NCBI GenBank assembly: GCA_964511645.1
Contig: CAZEGV010000002.1
Coordinates: forward strand, 2,689 to 66,688
DNA: 64,000 nucleotides
From: an uncultured Cytophagales bacterium
Lineage (GTDB): Bacteria; Bacteroidota; Bacteroidia; Cytophagales; JAAEPT01
Reading direction: 5' to 3'
Position numbers and translations under genes: made by a program. Positions 12,461 through 53,884 of the stretch are shown here, one piece after another (the first letter of the stretch is position 1; the number at the start of each line of letters is the position of its first letter). The notes under the pieces were generated by a model that saw only the letters and a list, made by a program, of their open reading frames with translations, did no database searches and had not been told where the DNA came from.

Positions 12461-12475
12461 ATAAATTTTTGACAC

Positions 12476-12512
12476 AAAAAAACCTGTTGCTTTTAGGGTA
12501 ACAGGTTTTTTT
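12476..12512. terminator. Bidirectional intrinsic terminator
   Basis: AAAAAAACCTGTT-loop-AACAGGTTTTTTT between the convergent genes ending at 12460 and 12535. Confidence 0.75.
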
Positions 12513-12534
12513 ATGTCAAAATAAATTGTGTTGA

Positions 12535-12960
12535 TTATTTTTTTAGTAAGTCACGAATTTCTCCTAACAATACTTCTTCTTTAGTTGGTGTTGCAGGTGC
12601 TTTTGGTGCTTCGGATTCTTTTTTCTCCATACCTTCTTTTAGTTTGTTATACCCTTTTACTACCATAAACACTACAAAAGCAACAATTATAAATGTAAGA
12701 ATATGATTAAAAAAGGTGCCATAGTTAATTGCTACTTCACTTATCGCATCACCAGCTCCTCCAGCAGTTTCTGCTACTGCATCTTGAATCACTAATTTTA
12801 AATCATTAAAATCAACACCACCGAGTATTTTTCCTACTGGAGGCATAATGATATCACTTACTAATGATTTGATAATTGCACCAAAGTAAGTACCCATAAT
12901 CATACCTACTGCCAATTCCATTACATTACCTTTGCTGATGAATTTTTTGAATTCGTTCAT
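12535..12960 (-). CDS. mscL: Large-conductance mechanosensitive channel
   Basis: FKKFISKGNVMELAVGMIMG N-terminus; two TM helices; 141 aa. Confidence 0.88.
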   Translation of the reverse strand: MNEFKKFISKGNVMELAVGMIMGTYFGAIIKSLVSDIIMPPVGKILGGVDFNDLKLVIQDAVAETAGGAGDAISEVAINYGTFFNHILTFIIVAFVVFMVVKGYNKLKEGMEKKESEAPKAPATPTKEEVLLGEIRDLLKK

Positions 12961-20269: not shown

Positions 20270-20883
20270 ATGAAATATATTATAGAAAAATTTTACACAG
20301 CATTTGGGGATTTAGATGCGGATAAAATGATTGAATGTTATCATCCAGAGGTCATTTTTGAATGATCCAGCATTTGGGGTTCTGAAATAAGAGCGAGCAA
20401 AAGAAATGTGGAAAATGTTATACCATTTTAACTATAAGACAAGTCATTTATCCTGTTTGTTTTTACACTCTCTTCGTTAAAATAATTTACCGTAACCAGT
20501 TATGCTAAATCATTTTTCCTCGATTTTGCAAAAAACAATTCAATCTAAATTAGACTCATATTATAGTTAAACTGGTATTATGCCATTCTCAAAAAGAAAA
20601 AGATTTTAAAATTACTTTTTCGGATGTAAAATGTGAGAGCGAAAAAGGAACTGCAAATTGGAATGCTTACTATACGTTTAGCCAAACAGGAAGAAAAGTA
20701 CATAATGAGATTTTGGCTTCTTTTGAGTTTAAGGATGGCTTAATTATTAAACATACGGATAGTTTTGATCTCCATAAGTGGGCAAAACAAGCGATGGGTC
20801 TCAAGGGATGGTTACTTGGGAGTACTTCTTTTTTTAGGACTCAACTACAACAAAAAACAAATAGTTTACTTGATAAGTTTTAA
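20270..20883 (+). pseudogene. NTF2/SnoaL-like protein gene, disrupted by a frameshift, a stop codon and a MITE
   Basis: MKYIIEKFYTAFGDLDADKMIECYHPEVIFE is followed by TGA at 20363. The +1 frame gives DPAFGVLK, then TAA at 20388-20390, then ERAKEMWKML. After removing 20421-20577 plus one TTA, the frame continues CHSQKEKDFKITFSD...SLLDKF to the stop at 20883. Confidence 0.75.
20421..20577. mobile_element. 157-bp non-autonomous element (MITE) with terminal inverted repeats and TTA target-site duplication
   Basis: Left end is TACCATTTTAACTATAAGACAAGTC; the reverse complement of the right end is TACCAGTTTAACTATAATATGAGTC (21/25 identical). TTA flanks both sides at 20418-20420 and 20578-20580. There is no ORF inside, and excision restores the host reading frame. 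Confidence 0.75.
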
Positions 20884-20929
20884 CTAAGGGAGGTGTAGCT
20901 TTCTAGTGTCAAAATAGATTAATGTAAAC

Positions 20930-21084
20930 GCAAAAGGGATTGAAGTGGAAATCCTTTGTTGTTTTTTTGTTCTGTATTTCGACAAACTCAATATGACACA
21001 AAAAAAACAACAAAGATTGGGAACGAGAAAGCCCGACCGAATATATGGCGTAGCGTGAGCGTAGTCATGTATTGGGGGTTTGCC
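20930..21084 (+). repeat. Structured interspersed repeat, copy A
   Basis: Shares ordered conserved blocks with 40602-40740 and 53700-53884. Long A/T-rich hairpin 20950-20969 / 20999-21018; closing helix GCAAA/TTTGC. Confidence 0.75.
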
Positions 21085-22566
21085 CTAATATTTTATTTTA
21101 TTAATGAAGTATATTTTTCTTTTCTTTTTATCGGCTTCTTTATTTTTTATCTTTTGATAGCCTGTTACGATGTAATAATCGTCATACCAGTAGCTAATGC
21201 CTGTACTTGTTGTGTATTTTACTTTGTCGTTTTCACTAAGGGTTTCAATTACCGATATAGACTCATCTCTCATTGTTTTTCCGTCGTCCGAAAAGGTTTT
21301 GAAATAGATAAATGATTTTCCTGAATAAGATAGTTCTAGGTTATCATTTTCATCTACTGATTTCCTAATAAATCGTTTCACAAAAAATGGTTTGTAATCA
21401 ACATGCATCTTGAATATATTGGTCCATTCTATATCGCCTTCTTTAGTAATGGAGGAAACCAGGGCATGAGTATATAAATATCCGTCAAACACTCTTTTCG
21501 TTTTTGTGACCGATTGCCCATTTACGTAAGTAGTGTAGTGTTCCGTCCTGTAAGTGGGGACATAAAATTCAGAAACCACATAGCTTTTATTCTCTGTAAG
21601 GTAAAACCCATGTGTGGTGGCTAAGAATTTTCCATAAAGCTCTTTTCCTTTTTTTTCTTTTTTAGCTTTCTTTTTCTCAACCTTCTTTTGTCTTTTTTCT
21701 GACAAGTATTCTGTGAAATGTTCTAAATCTAAAAAGTTATGGTATTTCAATGCACTTGTTTTCCCTGCCGCAGACAATCTCCCTGTAAAAAAACCTTGAC
21801 TGTAACCTTTTCTGCTTCTAAGAGAGTAAGTCCCACTTATTAGGTATGAACCATCGTTATTGTTACTTAACCTTAAGTCTGTGATTTGTTTTTTTTCTCC
21901 CAAGTCAAATGAAAGGGGTTTTCCGATTAGTTTTGCGTGTGCATCATATTTAAAAACCAAGTGTTTATATCCTCCTTCATCTGCTTTTACTTCAAATTGT
22001 ATATGATATTCATCATCGTGCTTACCGTAAGCATCAAGATGAGGCTTTTTATACCCTGAAACGGGAAGAGCAACATCTTTGTATTTCCCTGTTTTTAAAT
22101 CAAAGCTACGTATAAAGTAGTTTTTATTCGCTTTTATAAATGCGATTAATCGTTCTTCCATCATAGAAAAACTTAGTACCGCTGATTTTTTAGGTAATAC
22201 TCCAGAAAACATTTTAGTCCCTCCTGTTTTTCTACTCACGCTTAATTTATAGGAACCTTTTTTAGAATAATTTAAGTAAACAATTTTATTTGAACTTGCG
22301 GATGATTTTCCTCGTTTTAATTTATGAGGAATTACATTTATAATTGTTTTGACAGGGTTGAGTTGACTGTCCACCCATACAATATGTCTTTCGTAATTTT
22401 TGTTTTCACCTTCTGTGTAATAGCTTATGGCACCTGTTTTGTCACTAAATACAGTAAAACTACGGTGTTTTTCAGATTCAATTCTCTTTACTAATTTTAT
22501 TTGTGCATTTGTACTCATCCACGAAAGGATGAAAAATAGACTGAAAATAGTTTTTAAATTTTTCAT
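21085..22566 (-). CDS. Secreted protein of unknown function with an internal Lys-rich segment
   Basis: Signal peptide MKNLKTIFSLFFILSWMSTNAQ; beta-rich composition; EKRQKKVEKKKAKKEKKGKE insert; no recognisable domain. Confidence 0.6.
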   Translation of the reverse strand: MKNLKTIFSLFFILSWMSTNAQIKLVKRIESEKHRSFTVFSDKTGAISYYTEGENKNYERHIVWVDSQLNPVKTIINVIPHKLKRGKSSASSNKIVYLNYSKKGSYKLSVSRKTGGTKMFSGVLPKKSAVLSFSMMEERLIAFIKANKNYFIRSFDLKTGKYKDVALPVSGYKKPHLDAYGKHDDEYHIQFEVKADEGGYKHLVFKYDAHAKLIGKPLSFDLGEKKQITDLRLSNNNDGSYLISGTYSLRSRKGYSQGFFTGRLSAAGKTSALKYHNFLDLEHFTEYLSEKRQKKVEKKKAKKEKKGKELYGKFLATTHGFYLTENKSYVVSEFYVPTYRTEHYTTYVNGQSVTKTKRVFDGYLYTHALVSSITKEGDIEWTNIFKMHVDYKPFFVKRFIRKSVDENDNLELSYSGKSFIYFKTFSDDGKTMRDESISVIETLSENDKVKYTTSTGISYWYDDYYIVTGYQKIKNKEADKKKRKIYFINKIKY

Positions 22567-40224: not shown

Positions 40225-40584
40225 ATGAAACGGACACTAATATTAGGGGCGACTACAAATATTGAGCGTTACGCTTACAAGGCCGCAAAACGATTAACTC
40301 AGCACAAACACCCTATTGTGCCTGTTGGAATCAAAAAAGGTGAAGTATTTGGGGAAGTTATTTTGAATACTAAGGATTTACAAAAAGAGATTGATACGAT
40401 TACTTTATATGTAGGAGTTCGCCATCAACCAGAGTGGTATGGCTATATTGTTGAGACTAATCCAAGACGAGTTATCTTTAATCCTGGCACGGAGAATCCT
40501 GAACTGCAAACTCTGCTAAAGGAAAATGAAATCCCTTATGAAGAGGCTTGTACTTTGGTTTTGTTGAGTTTGAATGCTTATTAA
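40225..40584 (+). CDS. CoA-binding domain protein (YccU-like)
   Basis: 119 aa; ILGAT.N..RYAY and PV pattern. Confidence 0.65.
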   Translation: MKRTLILGATTNIERYAYKAAKRLTQHKHPIVPVGIKKGEVFGEVILNTKDLQKEIDTITLYVGVRHQPEWYGYIVETNPRRVIFNPGTENPELQTLLKENEIPYEEACTLVLLSLNAY

Positions 40585-40601
40585 GGGTAGGATTTTTTTT
40601 T

Positions 40602-40740
40602 GCGTTAGGGATTGACGTGGAAATTCTTTTTTATTTTTATACTTCGACAAGCTCAGCATGACAAAATTATAAAAATAAAAAAGATTGGGAACAAAAAGCC
40701 CGACCCCACGAGTTTGCCTTTTTGGCGAGTGGGGGAACGC
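40602..40740 (+). repeat. Structured interspersed repeat, copy B
   Basis: Same block order as copy A. Hairpin arms 40622-40641 / 40668-40686; closing helix GCGTT/AACGC. Confidence 0.75.
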
Positions 40741-40762
40741 CCAAGTTTTATTTTGAATTATA

Positions 40763-41398
40763 TTACTCTTTATTAATTAGGGTTTCTTCTGTGGGAAAGA
40801 ATTTTTTCTGATTAAACACGATATAAATCACTGAACAAAATATAGCAGCGTCTGCTACATTAAAAATAGGCCAAAGTGAATAATATGTGCTACCAAATAT
40901 TGGCCAGTCAGCTGGAGTTCGACCCCGTATAATGTCTACAAAAAACATATCAATTACTTTCCCGTGAAACCATGGTGTAGGCGGGTAAACAATGTTGCCA
41001 CTAGCATCTGTCGTTGTAACGAGTAATTTAGGGTCTAGTACAGCATAGAATATACTATCTAGTAAATTTCCTACAGCTCCGCCAAATATAAATGCTAAAC
41101 AAATTTGATAAGCCTTGTGCATCTTTTGTTTAAAAATTTTGGTGATATAATAGGCAATCCCCGTGATGGCAATAATACGAAATACTGTTAATATAATTTT
41201 ACCATATTCTCCGCCTATCTTTACTCCAAATGCCATCCCAGGGTTAGTGACGTACTGCAATTTAAAGAAATCACCAAATATAGGGATTACTGTGATGTCT
41301 TCTGTCATTGTTTGGTGTACAATATATTTGGTCAGTTGGTCTACAATGATTACTGCCAAAGAAATGAAGAAGAGTTTATATATTTTATTGTTTTTCAT
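40763..41398 (-). CDS. lspA: Lipoprotein signal peptidase (signal peptidase II)
   Basis: Four TM helices, conserved NPGMAFG and FNVAD motifs, adjacent to ileS. Confidence 0.85.
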   Translation of the reverse strand: MKNNKIYKLFFISLAVIIVDQLTKYIVHQTMTEDITVIPIFGDFFKLQYVTNPGMAFGVKIGGEYGKIILTVFRIIAITGIAYYITKIFKQKMHKAYQICLAFIFGGAVGNLLDSIFYAVLDPKLLVTTTDASGNIVYPPTPWFHGKVIDMFFVDIIRGRTPADWPIFGSTYYSLWPIFNVADAAIFCSVIYIVFNQKKFFPTEETLINKE

Positions 41399-53691: not shown

Positions 53692-53699
53692 ATTGTGGG

Positions 53700-53884
53700 A
53701 GCTTCCCTATCGTTTCACTCTCGTGGCTATTTCGCCCCAACGGTCGGGTCATTCGTTCCCAATCTTTGTTGTTTTTATGATTCTCCCATACTGAGCCTGT
53801 TAGTATCAGCATGAGCTTGCCGAAGATAAAATGAACTTTATCCGTAAAAAAACAACAAAGGATTTCCACTGCTACCCCTAAGCC
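53700..53884 (-). repeat. Structured interspersed repeat, copy C (inverted orientation, expanded apex)
   Basis: The reverse complement carries the same ordered blocks. Hairpin arms 53761-53780 / 53845-53864; closing helix GGCTT/AAGCT. Confidence 0.75.

Follow-up and report, generated by a model that had tools for sequence, protein, structure and literature searches.

Three Flavo-1 elements in a Cytophagales contig

The stretch analysed here (the window) comprises 64,000 nucleotides of contig CAZEGV010000002.1 from an uncultured Cytophagales bacterium and carries three copies, A, B and C, of the Flavo-1 element (Rfam: RF01705), scattered as singletons 13-20 kb apart, at a density of three copies per 64 kb. 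They add new members to an orphan family that was known already and do not represent a new kind of element. Comparative genomics led to the definition of Flavo-1 in 2010, when it was given a one-sentence description (Weinberg et al., 2010; PMC2864571); it is among the most abundant small RNA (sRNA) families in Rfam, with no function assigned (PMC9029176), and has 128 copies in Flavobacterium psychrophilum, where the only transcriptome study to consider it gave its authors "no real clues" (PMC9723704). What is new here is the complete architecture of the element (closing helix, second hairpin and tail), with a model that finds copies missed by Rfam, the rule that it lies antisense between co-directional genes, and its presence in Microviridae.

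The element folds into a closing helix (P1), a long irregular stem (P2) that brings together two conserved cores, and a variable hairpin (P3), followed by a short tail. The window copies are:

20930-21085 (to 21089 with the tail), + strand: copy A, full element (RF01705 47.4 bits; our covariance model R1, 63.5 bits), with P1 GCAAAA/GTTTGC, a P2 tip of 60 nt, a P3 of 41 nt and the tail CCTAAT
40602-40742, + strand: copy B, whole element, a unit of ~140 nt (RF01705 46.0 bits; R1 68.9 bits)
53698-53884, - strand: copy C, full element (nhmmer; R1 47 bits, E 4e-08), with P1 GGCTTA/GAAGCT including a G.U pair, a P2 tip of 95 nt and a P3 of 38 nt

Copies A and B exceed the RF01705 gathering score of 42, while copy C was not reported by the RF01705 search of the window even at E<=1, because its P2 tip is 95 nt long; it was found by nhmmer profiles of the cores, which return exactly three copies in the window and zero fragments, and by R1. 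Copies A and B have in common with RF01705 the two cores (ccGAUuGaAGcGGAAauCC and GauUguAgCGgAaAGCggGA), the irregular lower stem that these form, a tip of variable length and the phylum. That the host belongs to the Bacteroidota is indicated by its LspA, which is ~50% identical to its closest named relatives, from Cytophagales; the sole 100% match is a contig from a JGI metagenome, and the best non-self relative is 69% identical and has a different gene context. A comparison of copy B with orthologous loci was dropped, as none of the proteins encoded in the window has an exact or close relative in conserved synteny.

Copy B occupies the 178-nt gap between two convergent genes, a CoA-binding gene whose stop codon ends at 40584 and lspA with its stop codon at 40763, starting 17 nt past the former and ending 20 nt from the latter. 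Its parts, all on the + strand, are:

40602-40607: 5' strand of the closing helix P1, GCGTTA, which pairs with 40735-40740 and is recovered by a fold with DNA parameters
40608-40626: 5' conserved core and 5' side of lower P2, GGGATTGACGTGGAAATTC (RF01705 alignment; nhmmer E 1.2e-08)
40627-40682: upper P2, the AT-rich stem that holds the compensated pairs
40642-40663: P2 tip module, CTTCGACAAGCTCAGCATGACA
40683-40703: 3' conserved core and 3' side of lower P2, GATTGGGAACAAAAAGCCCGA (nhmmer E 9.8e-09; RF01705 alignment and columns of our alignment A1)
40704-40734: variable hairpin P3, CCCCACGAG..GCC TTTTT GGC..GAGTGGGG (sequence, RNA and DNA folds)
40735-40746: 3' strand of P1, GAACGC, with the invariant CC and the tail CCAAGT (consensus CCWAAT)

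The upper P2 stem is the long hairpin in which a preliminary description of this locus had noticed compensatory substitutions, and its observations hold up. The arms lie exactly at 40622-40641 (AATTCTTTTTTATTTTTATA) and 40668-40686 (TATAAAAATAAAAAAGATT); copies A and C share one arm pair (CTTTGTTGTTTTT / AAAAACAACAAAG), and two of its G:C pairs are replaced in copy B by U:A and A:U, with both arms changed and pairing kept. The lone unpaired C after AAUC/AAUU is retained in copy B, where the C:G pair at the foot (AAUC:GAUU) has become a U:G wobble. The 13-mer of the arm occurs seven times in the window if one-mismatch variants are counted, against 0.73 expected. P3 keeps its position and changes its sequence, CCCCAC..GTGGGG in copy B (40704-40734) against CCGAATATATG..CATGTATTGGGG in copy A (21037-21077). 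Overlooked in that description was the closing helix, GCGTT at 40602-40606 with AACGC at 40736-40740, which covaries as well (GCAAA/TTTGC in copy A, GGCTT/AAGCT in copy C).

A 54-aa open reading frame over copy B (40612-40776, + strand; MTWKFFFIFILRQAQHDK...) is a by-product of the repeat, and peptides of the "RQAQHDK" type are to be expected among gene calls wherever the tip module occurs.

Extended architecture and covariation

Pattern scans of genome, metagenome and viral collections yielded ~45 additional copies. Among the metagenome contigs, 21 come from a single metagenome, Ga0256845, which is probably the window's own source, judging from a MITE (miniature inverted-repeat transposable element) that the two have in common at 96-99% identity. 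We parsed 43 copies and condensed 42 of them into alignment A1, whose tips were trimmed to 8+8 nt (P2) and 3+3 nt (P3), its sequences being edited, not native; R1 was built from A1.

Across the 43 parsed copies, the sense strand folds into a three-way junction of constant plan, in a unit that measures ~140 nt in copy B and from 85 to >300 nt in other copies. P1 has 5-6 bp and is free in sequence while its complementarity is kept, with 11 types that include GCGTT/AACGC, GGCTT/AAGCC, GCGTG/CACGC, GCGAG/CTCGC, GCATT/AATGC and GCAAA/TTTGC. P2 is long and irregular and juxtaposes two near-invariant, purine-rich cores whatever the length of its tip (19-229 nt among the parsed copies). The 5' core has the 19-nt consensus GGGAUUGNAGUGGAAAUCC and is invariant or nearly so in the columns of A1; the 3' core has the 21-nt consensus GAUUGGGAACNNAAAGCCCGA. 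P3 ranges from 7 to >70 nt and invariably has CC at its start and GG at its end; the type seen in copy B recurs in loci L103, L107, L109, L117, L118 and L129. After P1 comes a conserved, single-stranded tail, whose successive positions are, among the 42 aligned copies, C in 42, C in 40, A or T in 39, A in 39, A in 33 and T in 27.

A stronger test than folding energy is the comparison between copies. In A1, 88.5% of cells are paired, as opposed to 76.1% in shuffles. The covariation score of 0.298, against 0.090 in shuffles, was reached by 0 of 500 shuffles; sliding the 3' partners by 1-3 columns lowers it to 0.02-0.09. Both sides have changed in 8-18 sequences at pairs of upper P2. The internal column pair 16-60, in lower P2, covaries too, with UA 26 times, AU 12 times, and GC, GU and UG once each. 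At P1 (pairs 6-78, 7-77, 8-76 and 9-75), 7-18 sequences are doubly changed and at most one is unpaired, with the caveat that the 3' strand of P1 was placed partly by complementarity, its position being fixed also by the flanking GG and CC.

Covariation of the kind noticed in copy B is what defined RF01705. The Rfam model (76 positions) ends at ..GCCCGAcc, without the 3' strand of the closing helix, P3 or the CCWAAT tail, and as a result finds neither copy C nor the majority of the microvirus copies described below; it is typed "Gene; sRNA", without evidence of a transcription unit.

Two further helices were considered and rejected: an extension of P1 through the flanking TTT/AAA is merely 54% paired, and the alternative UUAGGG/CCCWAA showed no covariation with the P1 variants on inspection of the A1 sequences. 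A sarcin-ricin or k-turn reading of the internal loops was rejected as well, their sequences being unsuited to it.

The ~20-nt module CTTCGACAAGCTCAGCATGACA at the P2 tips of the window copies (40642-40663; ~20977-20998; 53807-53826 and 53785-53800 on the minus strand) is present once or twice and in either orientation, and also appears in the P3 of L074 and outside elements (L092, L130), while other copies bear GTAGCG-type modules instead. Possible readings are a mini-repeat nested in the element or a motif of the loop.

A conserved fold

The structure stands up to dinucleotide shuffling, a check proposed in the preliminary description: the RNA of copy B folds at -43.2 kcal/mol (z -3.82), and with DNA parameters (-25.3; z -3.52) the comparative structure is reproduced exactly. 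Copy A reaches a z of -3.10 and copy C only -1.79, and the opposite strand of copy B also beats its shuffles (z -4.41). Over the family, the sense strand folds 5.3 kcal/mol better than the antisense strand in 38 of 43 copies. Choosing the strand by folding energy was nonetheless rejected, because shuffled sequences differ by -4.2 kcal/mol through composition and the z-scores are alike (p 0.33). As the raw difference is mostly compositional, only the counts of G.U and A.C, 33 against 11 in the helices of the Rfam-sense strand, were kept as evidence of strand. The cores lie 19-229 nt apart in the duplex yet always adjacent in the fold, so that what is conserved is the fold of a single strand, DNA or RNA alike, or of an extruded cruciform.

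A discrete and dispersed unit

Within a genome, copies resemble one another over the whole element, non-conserved hairpins included, and form genome-specific subfamilies with mean pairwise identities of 0.64-0.82 (0.82 in the SVL1 genome bins, two metagenome-assembled genomes from one sample; 0.64-0.66 in two Ga0256845 subfamilies). The ends are sharp: no more than 3 nt into the upstream flank and 6-12 nt into the downstream flank, identity is down to a background of ~0.3. With respect to PATEs of the IS200/IS605 type, which have subterminal hairpins at both ends and a fixed target tetranucleotide 5' of the left end, what the copies show is a preference for T at positions -1 to -3 (31, 23 and 20 of 42 copies) and a conserved tail at the 3' end. 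An orthologous copy is found in the spacer between a recO-like gene and ileS in three related Flavobacteriales genomes (L092, L113 (=L128) and L130), where P2 and P3 have diverged yet remain paired, with compensated changes apparent by eye. Copy B sits at the other end of an ileS-lspA pair, probably by coincidence.

No TnpA or TnpB was found near the copies, no single-copy Y1 (HUH) gene flanked by the repeat in the window or beside the parsed copies, and no real match in a search of plasmids.

The window also contains a repeat of the MITE kind, 159 bp long (20420-20578, inside ~20272-20885), with 26-nt terminal inverted repeats (ATACCATTTTAACTATAAGACAAGTC), which lies within a disrupted NTF2/SnoaL-like open reading frame. 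Its copies are 83-99% identical in at least 11 contigs of Ga0256845; in L121 one of them interrupts the P2 tip of Flavo-1, and in L117 and L123 others stand a few nucleotides upstream of the element. At 12473-12579 (- strand), below-threshold matches to Thr_leader (27.8 bits, E 0.46) and STnc370 may mark a leader-like structure upstream of a 141-aa gene (12535-12960) or be due to chance.

Position, orientation and transcription

Seen from the element, 33 of 39 copies have a convergent gene as their downstream neighbour, and in ~20 copies its stop codon lies 0-30 nt from the 3' end of the element, overlapping it in L104 and in copy A, whose final C falls in the TAG stop codon of a convergent 493-aa gene (21085-22566, - strand). 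Between co-directional genes, the element is antisense in a ratio of ~17:0 here, and likewise in all five such cases among the 13 F. psychrophilum copies that we read in Table S3 of the published transcriptome (PMC9723704). Of the F. psychrophilum copies inspected, about half sit in divergent spacers, where a co-directional gene has the element ~100 nt upstream of it, which explains why the authors of that transcriptome saw no overall bias. Copy C, antisense to both flanking + strand genes, is oriented by these and unlike copies A and B, so the rule tracks transcription, not replication; we infer that it reflects counter-selection of sense copies inside transcription units. The neighbouring genes are functionally unrelated and include, besides lspA, those for an ABC-2 permease, a HAD hydrolase, a recO-like protein, shikimate dehydrogenase, a SpoU methylase, an ABC-F protein, an OmpA-family protein and a glutamine amidotransferase.

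The preliminary description had offered that copy B may act as a terminator or 3' untranslated region (3'-UTR) element, or may have inserted into one. Its structured repeat is indeed under pairing selection, and insertion fits best because the element is a discrete, dispersed unit with sharp ends; the terminator reading is not supported. Inside 40585-40762 there is no stem followed by a T-run on either strand, copy B having no hairpin with an immediate U-tract and ending in CCAAGT; the terminator scan found none at copy C and a marginal one at copy A. T prevails in the upstream flanks (31/42 copies at -1) and A in the downstream ones, the reverse of a terminator. Ordinary terminators of the A-tract/GC-hairpin/T-tract kind adjoin the elements of L097, L102, L112 and L125 and do not lie inside them.

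More generally, Flavo-1 might be a cis-acting 3'-UTR element, a terminator or a barrier to 3' exonucleases, in any mRNA that contains it. The place of copy B 17 nt after one stop codon and 20 nt from another, the stop codons close to the 3' end of ~20 copies, the good folding of both strands and the inclusion of antisense copies in 3' and intergenic mRNA segments of F. psychrophilum all agree with this. We nevertheless consider it very improbable: the hairpin-plus-U-tract is missing and separate canonical terminators adjoin some copies; in F. psychrophilum, antisense copies are transcribed through at about the level of the genes (PMC9723704, Table S3), expression carrying on across them inside operons, and about half of the copies inspected there are upstream of genes, not downstream; the A.C mismatches belong to the strand that mRNA usually contains; and a generic hairpin barrier needs no 40 invariant nucleotides. 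A passive stabilising effect in 3'-UTRs may exist, but would leave the invariant cores unexplained. We lean, with some reserve, towards the view that copy B is not the terminator of either the CoA-binding gene or lspA and has no gene-specific role.

The family's Rfam type suggests instead a structured sRNA made from the sense strand that acts either in trans or, as a cis-antisense RNA, on the convergent gene's 3' end, with conserved internal loops that would bind a protein. The covariation, the excess of G.U over A.C on the sense strand and the conserved purine-rich internal loops, which resemble RNA motifs, speak for it, as does the typical facing of the 3' end to a convergent gene, whereby a sense RNA would be antisense to that gene's 3'-UTR; Flavo-1 has also been reported among unannotated transcripts of Leptospira. 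The microarray data of F. psychrophilum (PMC9723704) cut both ways. The sense probes of seven of 13 copies rise together on nutrient-poor agar and in late growth, reaching log2 12-13.6 on dilute agar in an expression cluster with tRNA-Cys. On the other hand, sense probes are at background (3.9-5) for copies 0001, 0006, 0008 and 0011, while the strand opposite Flavo-1 is at log2 9-11 within mRNAs, the authors describe the hits as "indistinctly" sense or antisense, with many untranscribed, and probes for repeats can cross-hybridise. No 3' terminator and no conserved promoter motif accompany the element: TAnnTTTG, the promoter motif of Bacteroidota, lies upstream of only 3 of 40 copies, at scattered distances and never at a fixed one, which led us to reject a promoter of its own. 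With 128 copies and genome-specific subfamilies being unlike an sRNA gene family as well, we think this explanation rather unlikely.

Copies in Microviridae

IMG/VR contigs contain minimal forms of 85-90 nt that score above the Rfam threshold. When the phage collection was searched by BLAST with a minimal chromosomal copy, the only match was in a microvirus, and with that microvirus copy as the query all matches were to Microviridae. Complete Flavo-1-like elements, with the same termini, the cores GGGAUAG.AG and GGAUAGCCCGA, P3, P1 and the tail CCAAAU, are found in five lineages of Microviridae, in either orientation, in the non-coding regions next to Rep:

L157, 3436-3538: microvirus element
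L159, 2460-2551: microvirus element
L158, 1371-1456: microvirus element
L160, 460-545: microvirus element
L205, 4131-4211: microvirus element
L221, ~931-1019: microvirus element

RF01705 detects only one of the microvirus copies, at 28 bits and below threshold; R1 scores all of them at 30-45 bits over the full length of the model. The element is in gene sense in OM869667.1 and MZ089809.1, antisense and 11-17 nt past the Rep stop codon in MZ089795.1 and MG945248.1, and antisense in an abundant ~6 kb lineage, in which it follows the stop codon of a 355-aa gene (probably encoding the pilot protein) by 1 nt and precedes Rep by 20-163 nt. When the L205 region is compared with other microviruses, three of four matches (H8, H9 and H10) fall on the element and the other (H7) in the Rep gene. 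Among the close relatives sampled, whose capsids are ~80-87% identical to the query, some have the full 81-nt element (L221-223, L205), some only P3 and the 3' strand of P1 (L218 and L220, which have lost exactly the P2 domain) and one neither (L219). The element is therefore dispensable for the phage and exchanged as a unit.

Integration of microviruses by way of Flavo-1 was considered and rejected, the abundant lineage being found only on contigs of ~2.4-12 kb, mostly ~6 kb, and on no long host contigs; published microvirus proviruses use 13-bp dif-like sites (PMC3091885).

Copies beside integron integrases

In four contigs, Flavo-1 lies ~100 nt upstream of an integron integrase; the contigs have their 5' side with the integrase in common and diverge directly after the 3' end of the element, which would place the element at a rearrangement junction. 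An attI of its own belongs to this integrase, and its homologues have arrays of ~140-nt attC sites that are unrelated to Flavo-1; no Flavo-1 was found near integrase homologues elsewhere, also with R1. A mechanistic link to the tyrosine recombinase was thus rejected, its attI and attC being unrelated and its homologues lacking Flavo-1, in favour of coincidence or a rearrangement junction.

The Bacteroidota integrons are an observation in their own right. Their integrase has 428-440 aa, an N-terminal extension and the domains Phage_int_SAM_4 and Phage_integrase, and their attI is palindromic (ATATACGGAAC..GTTCCGTATAT ACGTT). Cassettes form same-strand arrays, separated by conserved ~140-nt attC sites whose R''/R' ends pair from cassette to cassette, and cassette content varies among samples. 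The loci are:

L116, 11342-12924: integron locus
L139, 4318-7155: integron locus
L137, 4288-5480: integron locus

The copies in phages and beside integrases raise the question whether Flavo-1 is a host signal read on folded single-stranded DNA (ssDNA), such as a priming, replication-restart or structure-specific recombinase site, that small ssDNA phages have borrowed. Its function would depend on the fold and not on duplex spacing, folding with DNA parameters returns the comparative structure exactly, complete copies stand in the main non-coding region beside the Microviridae Rep gene, on the packaged strand in two genomes, and the neighbouring integrase is an enzyme that acts on folded ssDNA. 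We judge this very unlikely all the same, since three microvirus lineages have the sense sequence on the complementary strand, which is never single-stranded, and some phage relatives have lost the element. The attC sites of Bacteroidota integrons are, moreover, unrelated in sequence and opposite in arm polarity, homologous integrases elsewhere have no Flavo-1 nearby, and orientation follows local transcription, not one direction of replication, as copy C shows against A and B.

A structure-defined mobile repeat?

The reading that we tentatively favour is that Flavo-1 may well be a REPIN-like, non-autonomous repeat under selection for its single-stranded fold, which a protein acting in trans would recognise. 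Such an element would multiply and spread as a discrete, self-contained unit; the candidate trans-acting protein would recognise the folded single strand, as ssDNA or RNA, and selection on the fold would produce compensatory changes like those seen in copy B. Copies would persist where they are least harmful, between genes and usually with a convergent gene's stop codon next to the 3' end, so that in persisting copies the sense strand would be the template strand of local transcription. Mobility and a single-stranded intermediate are what we infer from these patterns. A broader proposal, which we regard as possible but more doubtful, is that Flavo-1 would be not an sRNA gene but a widespread, mobile, structure-defined unit of the Bacteroidota, with more parts than the Rfam model contains, that passes between chromosomes and the small ssDNA phages of the Microviridae via a folded single-stranded intermediate handled by a protein, in a new system that would be REPIN-like but outside the RAYT/GTAG system.

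Several results weigh against the REPIN-like reading. The analysis identified no mobilising protein, be it a transposase, a reverse transcriptase or another, and the structures listed for RAYT subclass 2.6, which is specific to Bacteroidetes, are without the Flavo-1 core GGAAATCC (PMC6006769, Table S1). Direct or inverted matches between the flanks of 42 copies, as expected from target-site duplication or flank complementarity, show no excess over permuted pairs; terminal inverted repeats are absent, P1 having 5-6 bp in 11 types; and no clean empty site was recovered. The variants among microviruses look like losses, not gains, and reveal no insertion site, and the copy between recO and ileS suggests either a constraint at the level of the host or long persistence. 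The co-induced sense probes of F. psychrophilum could stem from a stable sense RNA or from cross-hybridisation, and the advantage of sense over antisense folding (-5.3 kcal/mol) is mostly compositional.

Should Flavo-1 be a mobile repeat that depends on its fold, and not an RNA gene, thousands of annotations in genomes would carry the wrong label, the Bacteroidota would hold a REPIN-like system with an enzyme of its own, and there would be a sequence link between their chromosomes and the Microviridae. The window alone adds modestly to this, with three more copies of a known orphan element. The extended model with P1, P3 and tail is useful at once, as it finds copies that RF01705 misses and defines exact ends, which makes gain and loss mapping and biochemical tests possible.

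Comparison with known systems

Flavo-1 resembles the attC sites of integrons in its fold-based logic, a hairpin that is imperfect, holds unpaired bases and ends in a loop of free length, the frequent GTTA/TAAC of the closing helix, a place just past a stop codon and, in some contigs, an adjacent integron-type integrase. It departs from the attC scheme (5' RYYYAAC ... GTTRRRY 3', in arrays downstream of intI) in that the polarity of its arms is reversed, with GTTA in the 5' arm and TAAC in the 3' arm, GTT/AAC is not invariant (GCGTGA, GGCTTA and GCAAAA occur) and its copies form no arrays, lying 13-20 kb apart.

With the structured, MITE-like ERIC/IRU, Correia, RUP and BOX repeats, whose effects depend on local context, it has in common that it is short, intergenic, often co-transcribed and folded as RNA; these, however, have terminal inverted repeats and usually duplicate TA or a similar target, and Flavo-1 does neither, which equally sets it apart from MITEs, defined by conserved terminal inverted repeats and a duplication. 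A true MITE of that kind lies in the same window, at 20420-20578.

Another comparison is with the REP (repetitive extragenic palindrome) and REPIN elements, which are mobilised by RAYT (TnpA-REP) transposases of the HUH type. Flavo-1 differs from them in forming a three-way junction instead of a simple or doublet hairpin, in its strong orientation rule with respect to transcription and in lacking the GT[AG]G foot, its 5' end being T|GCGTTA or T|GGCTTA, without GTAG or GTGG; the "atypical structures" of RAYT subclass 2.6 were rejected as kin, their sequences being different (PMC6006769). What Flavo-1 and the REP/REPIN elements have in common are tens to hundreds of extragenic copies in genome-specific subfamilies, a hairpin with conserved arms, a free loop and compensated changes, the absence of terminal inverted repeats and target-site duplications, and long vertical persistence.

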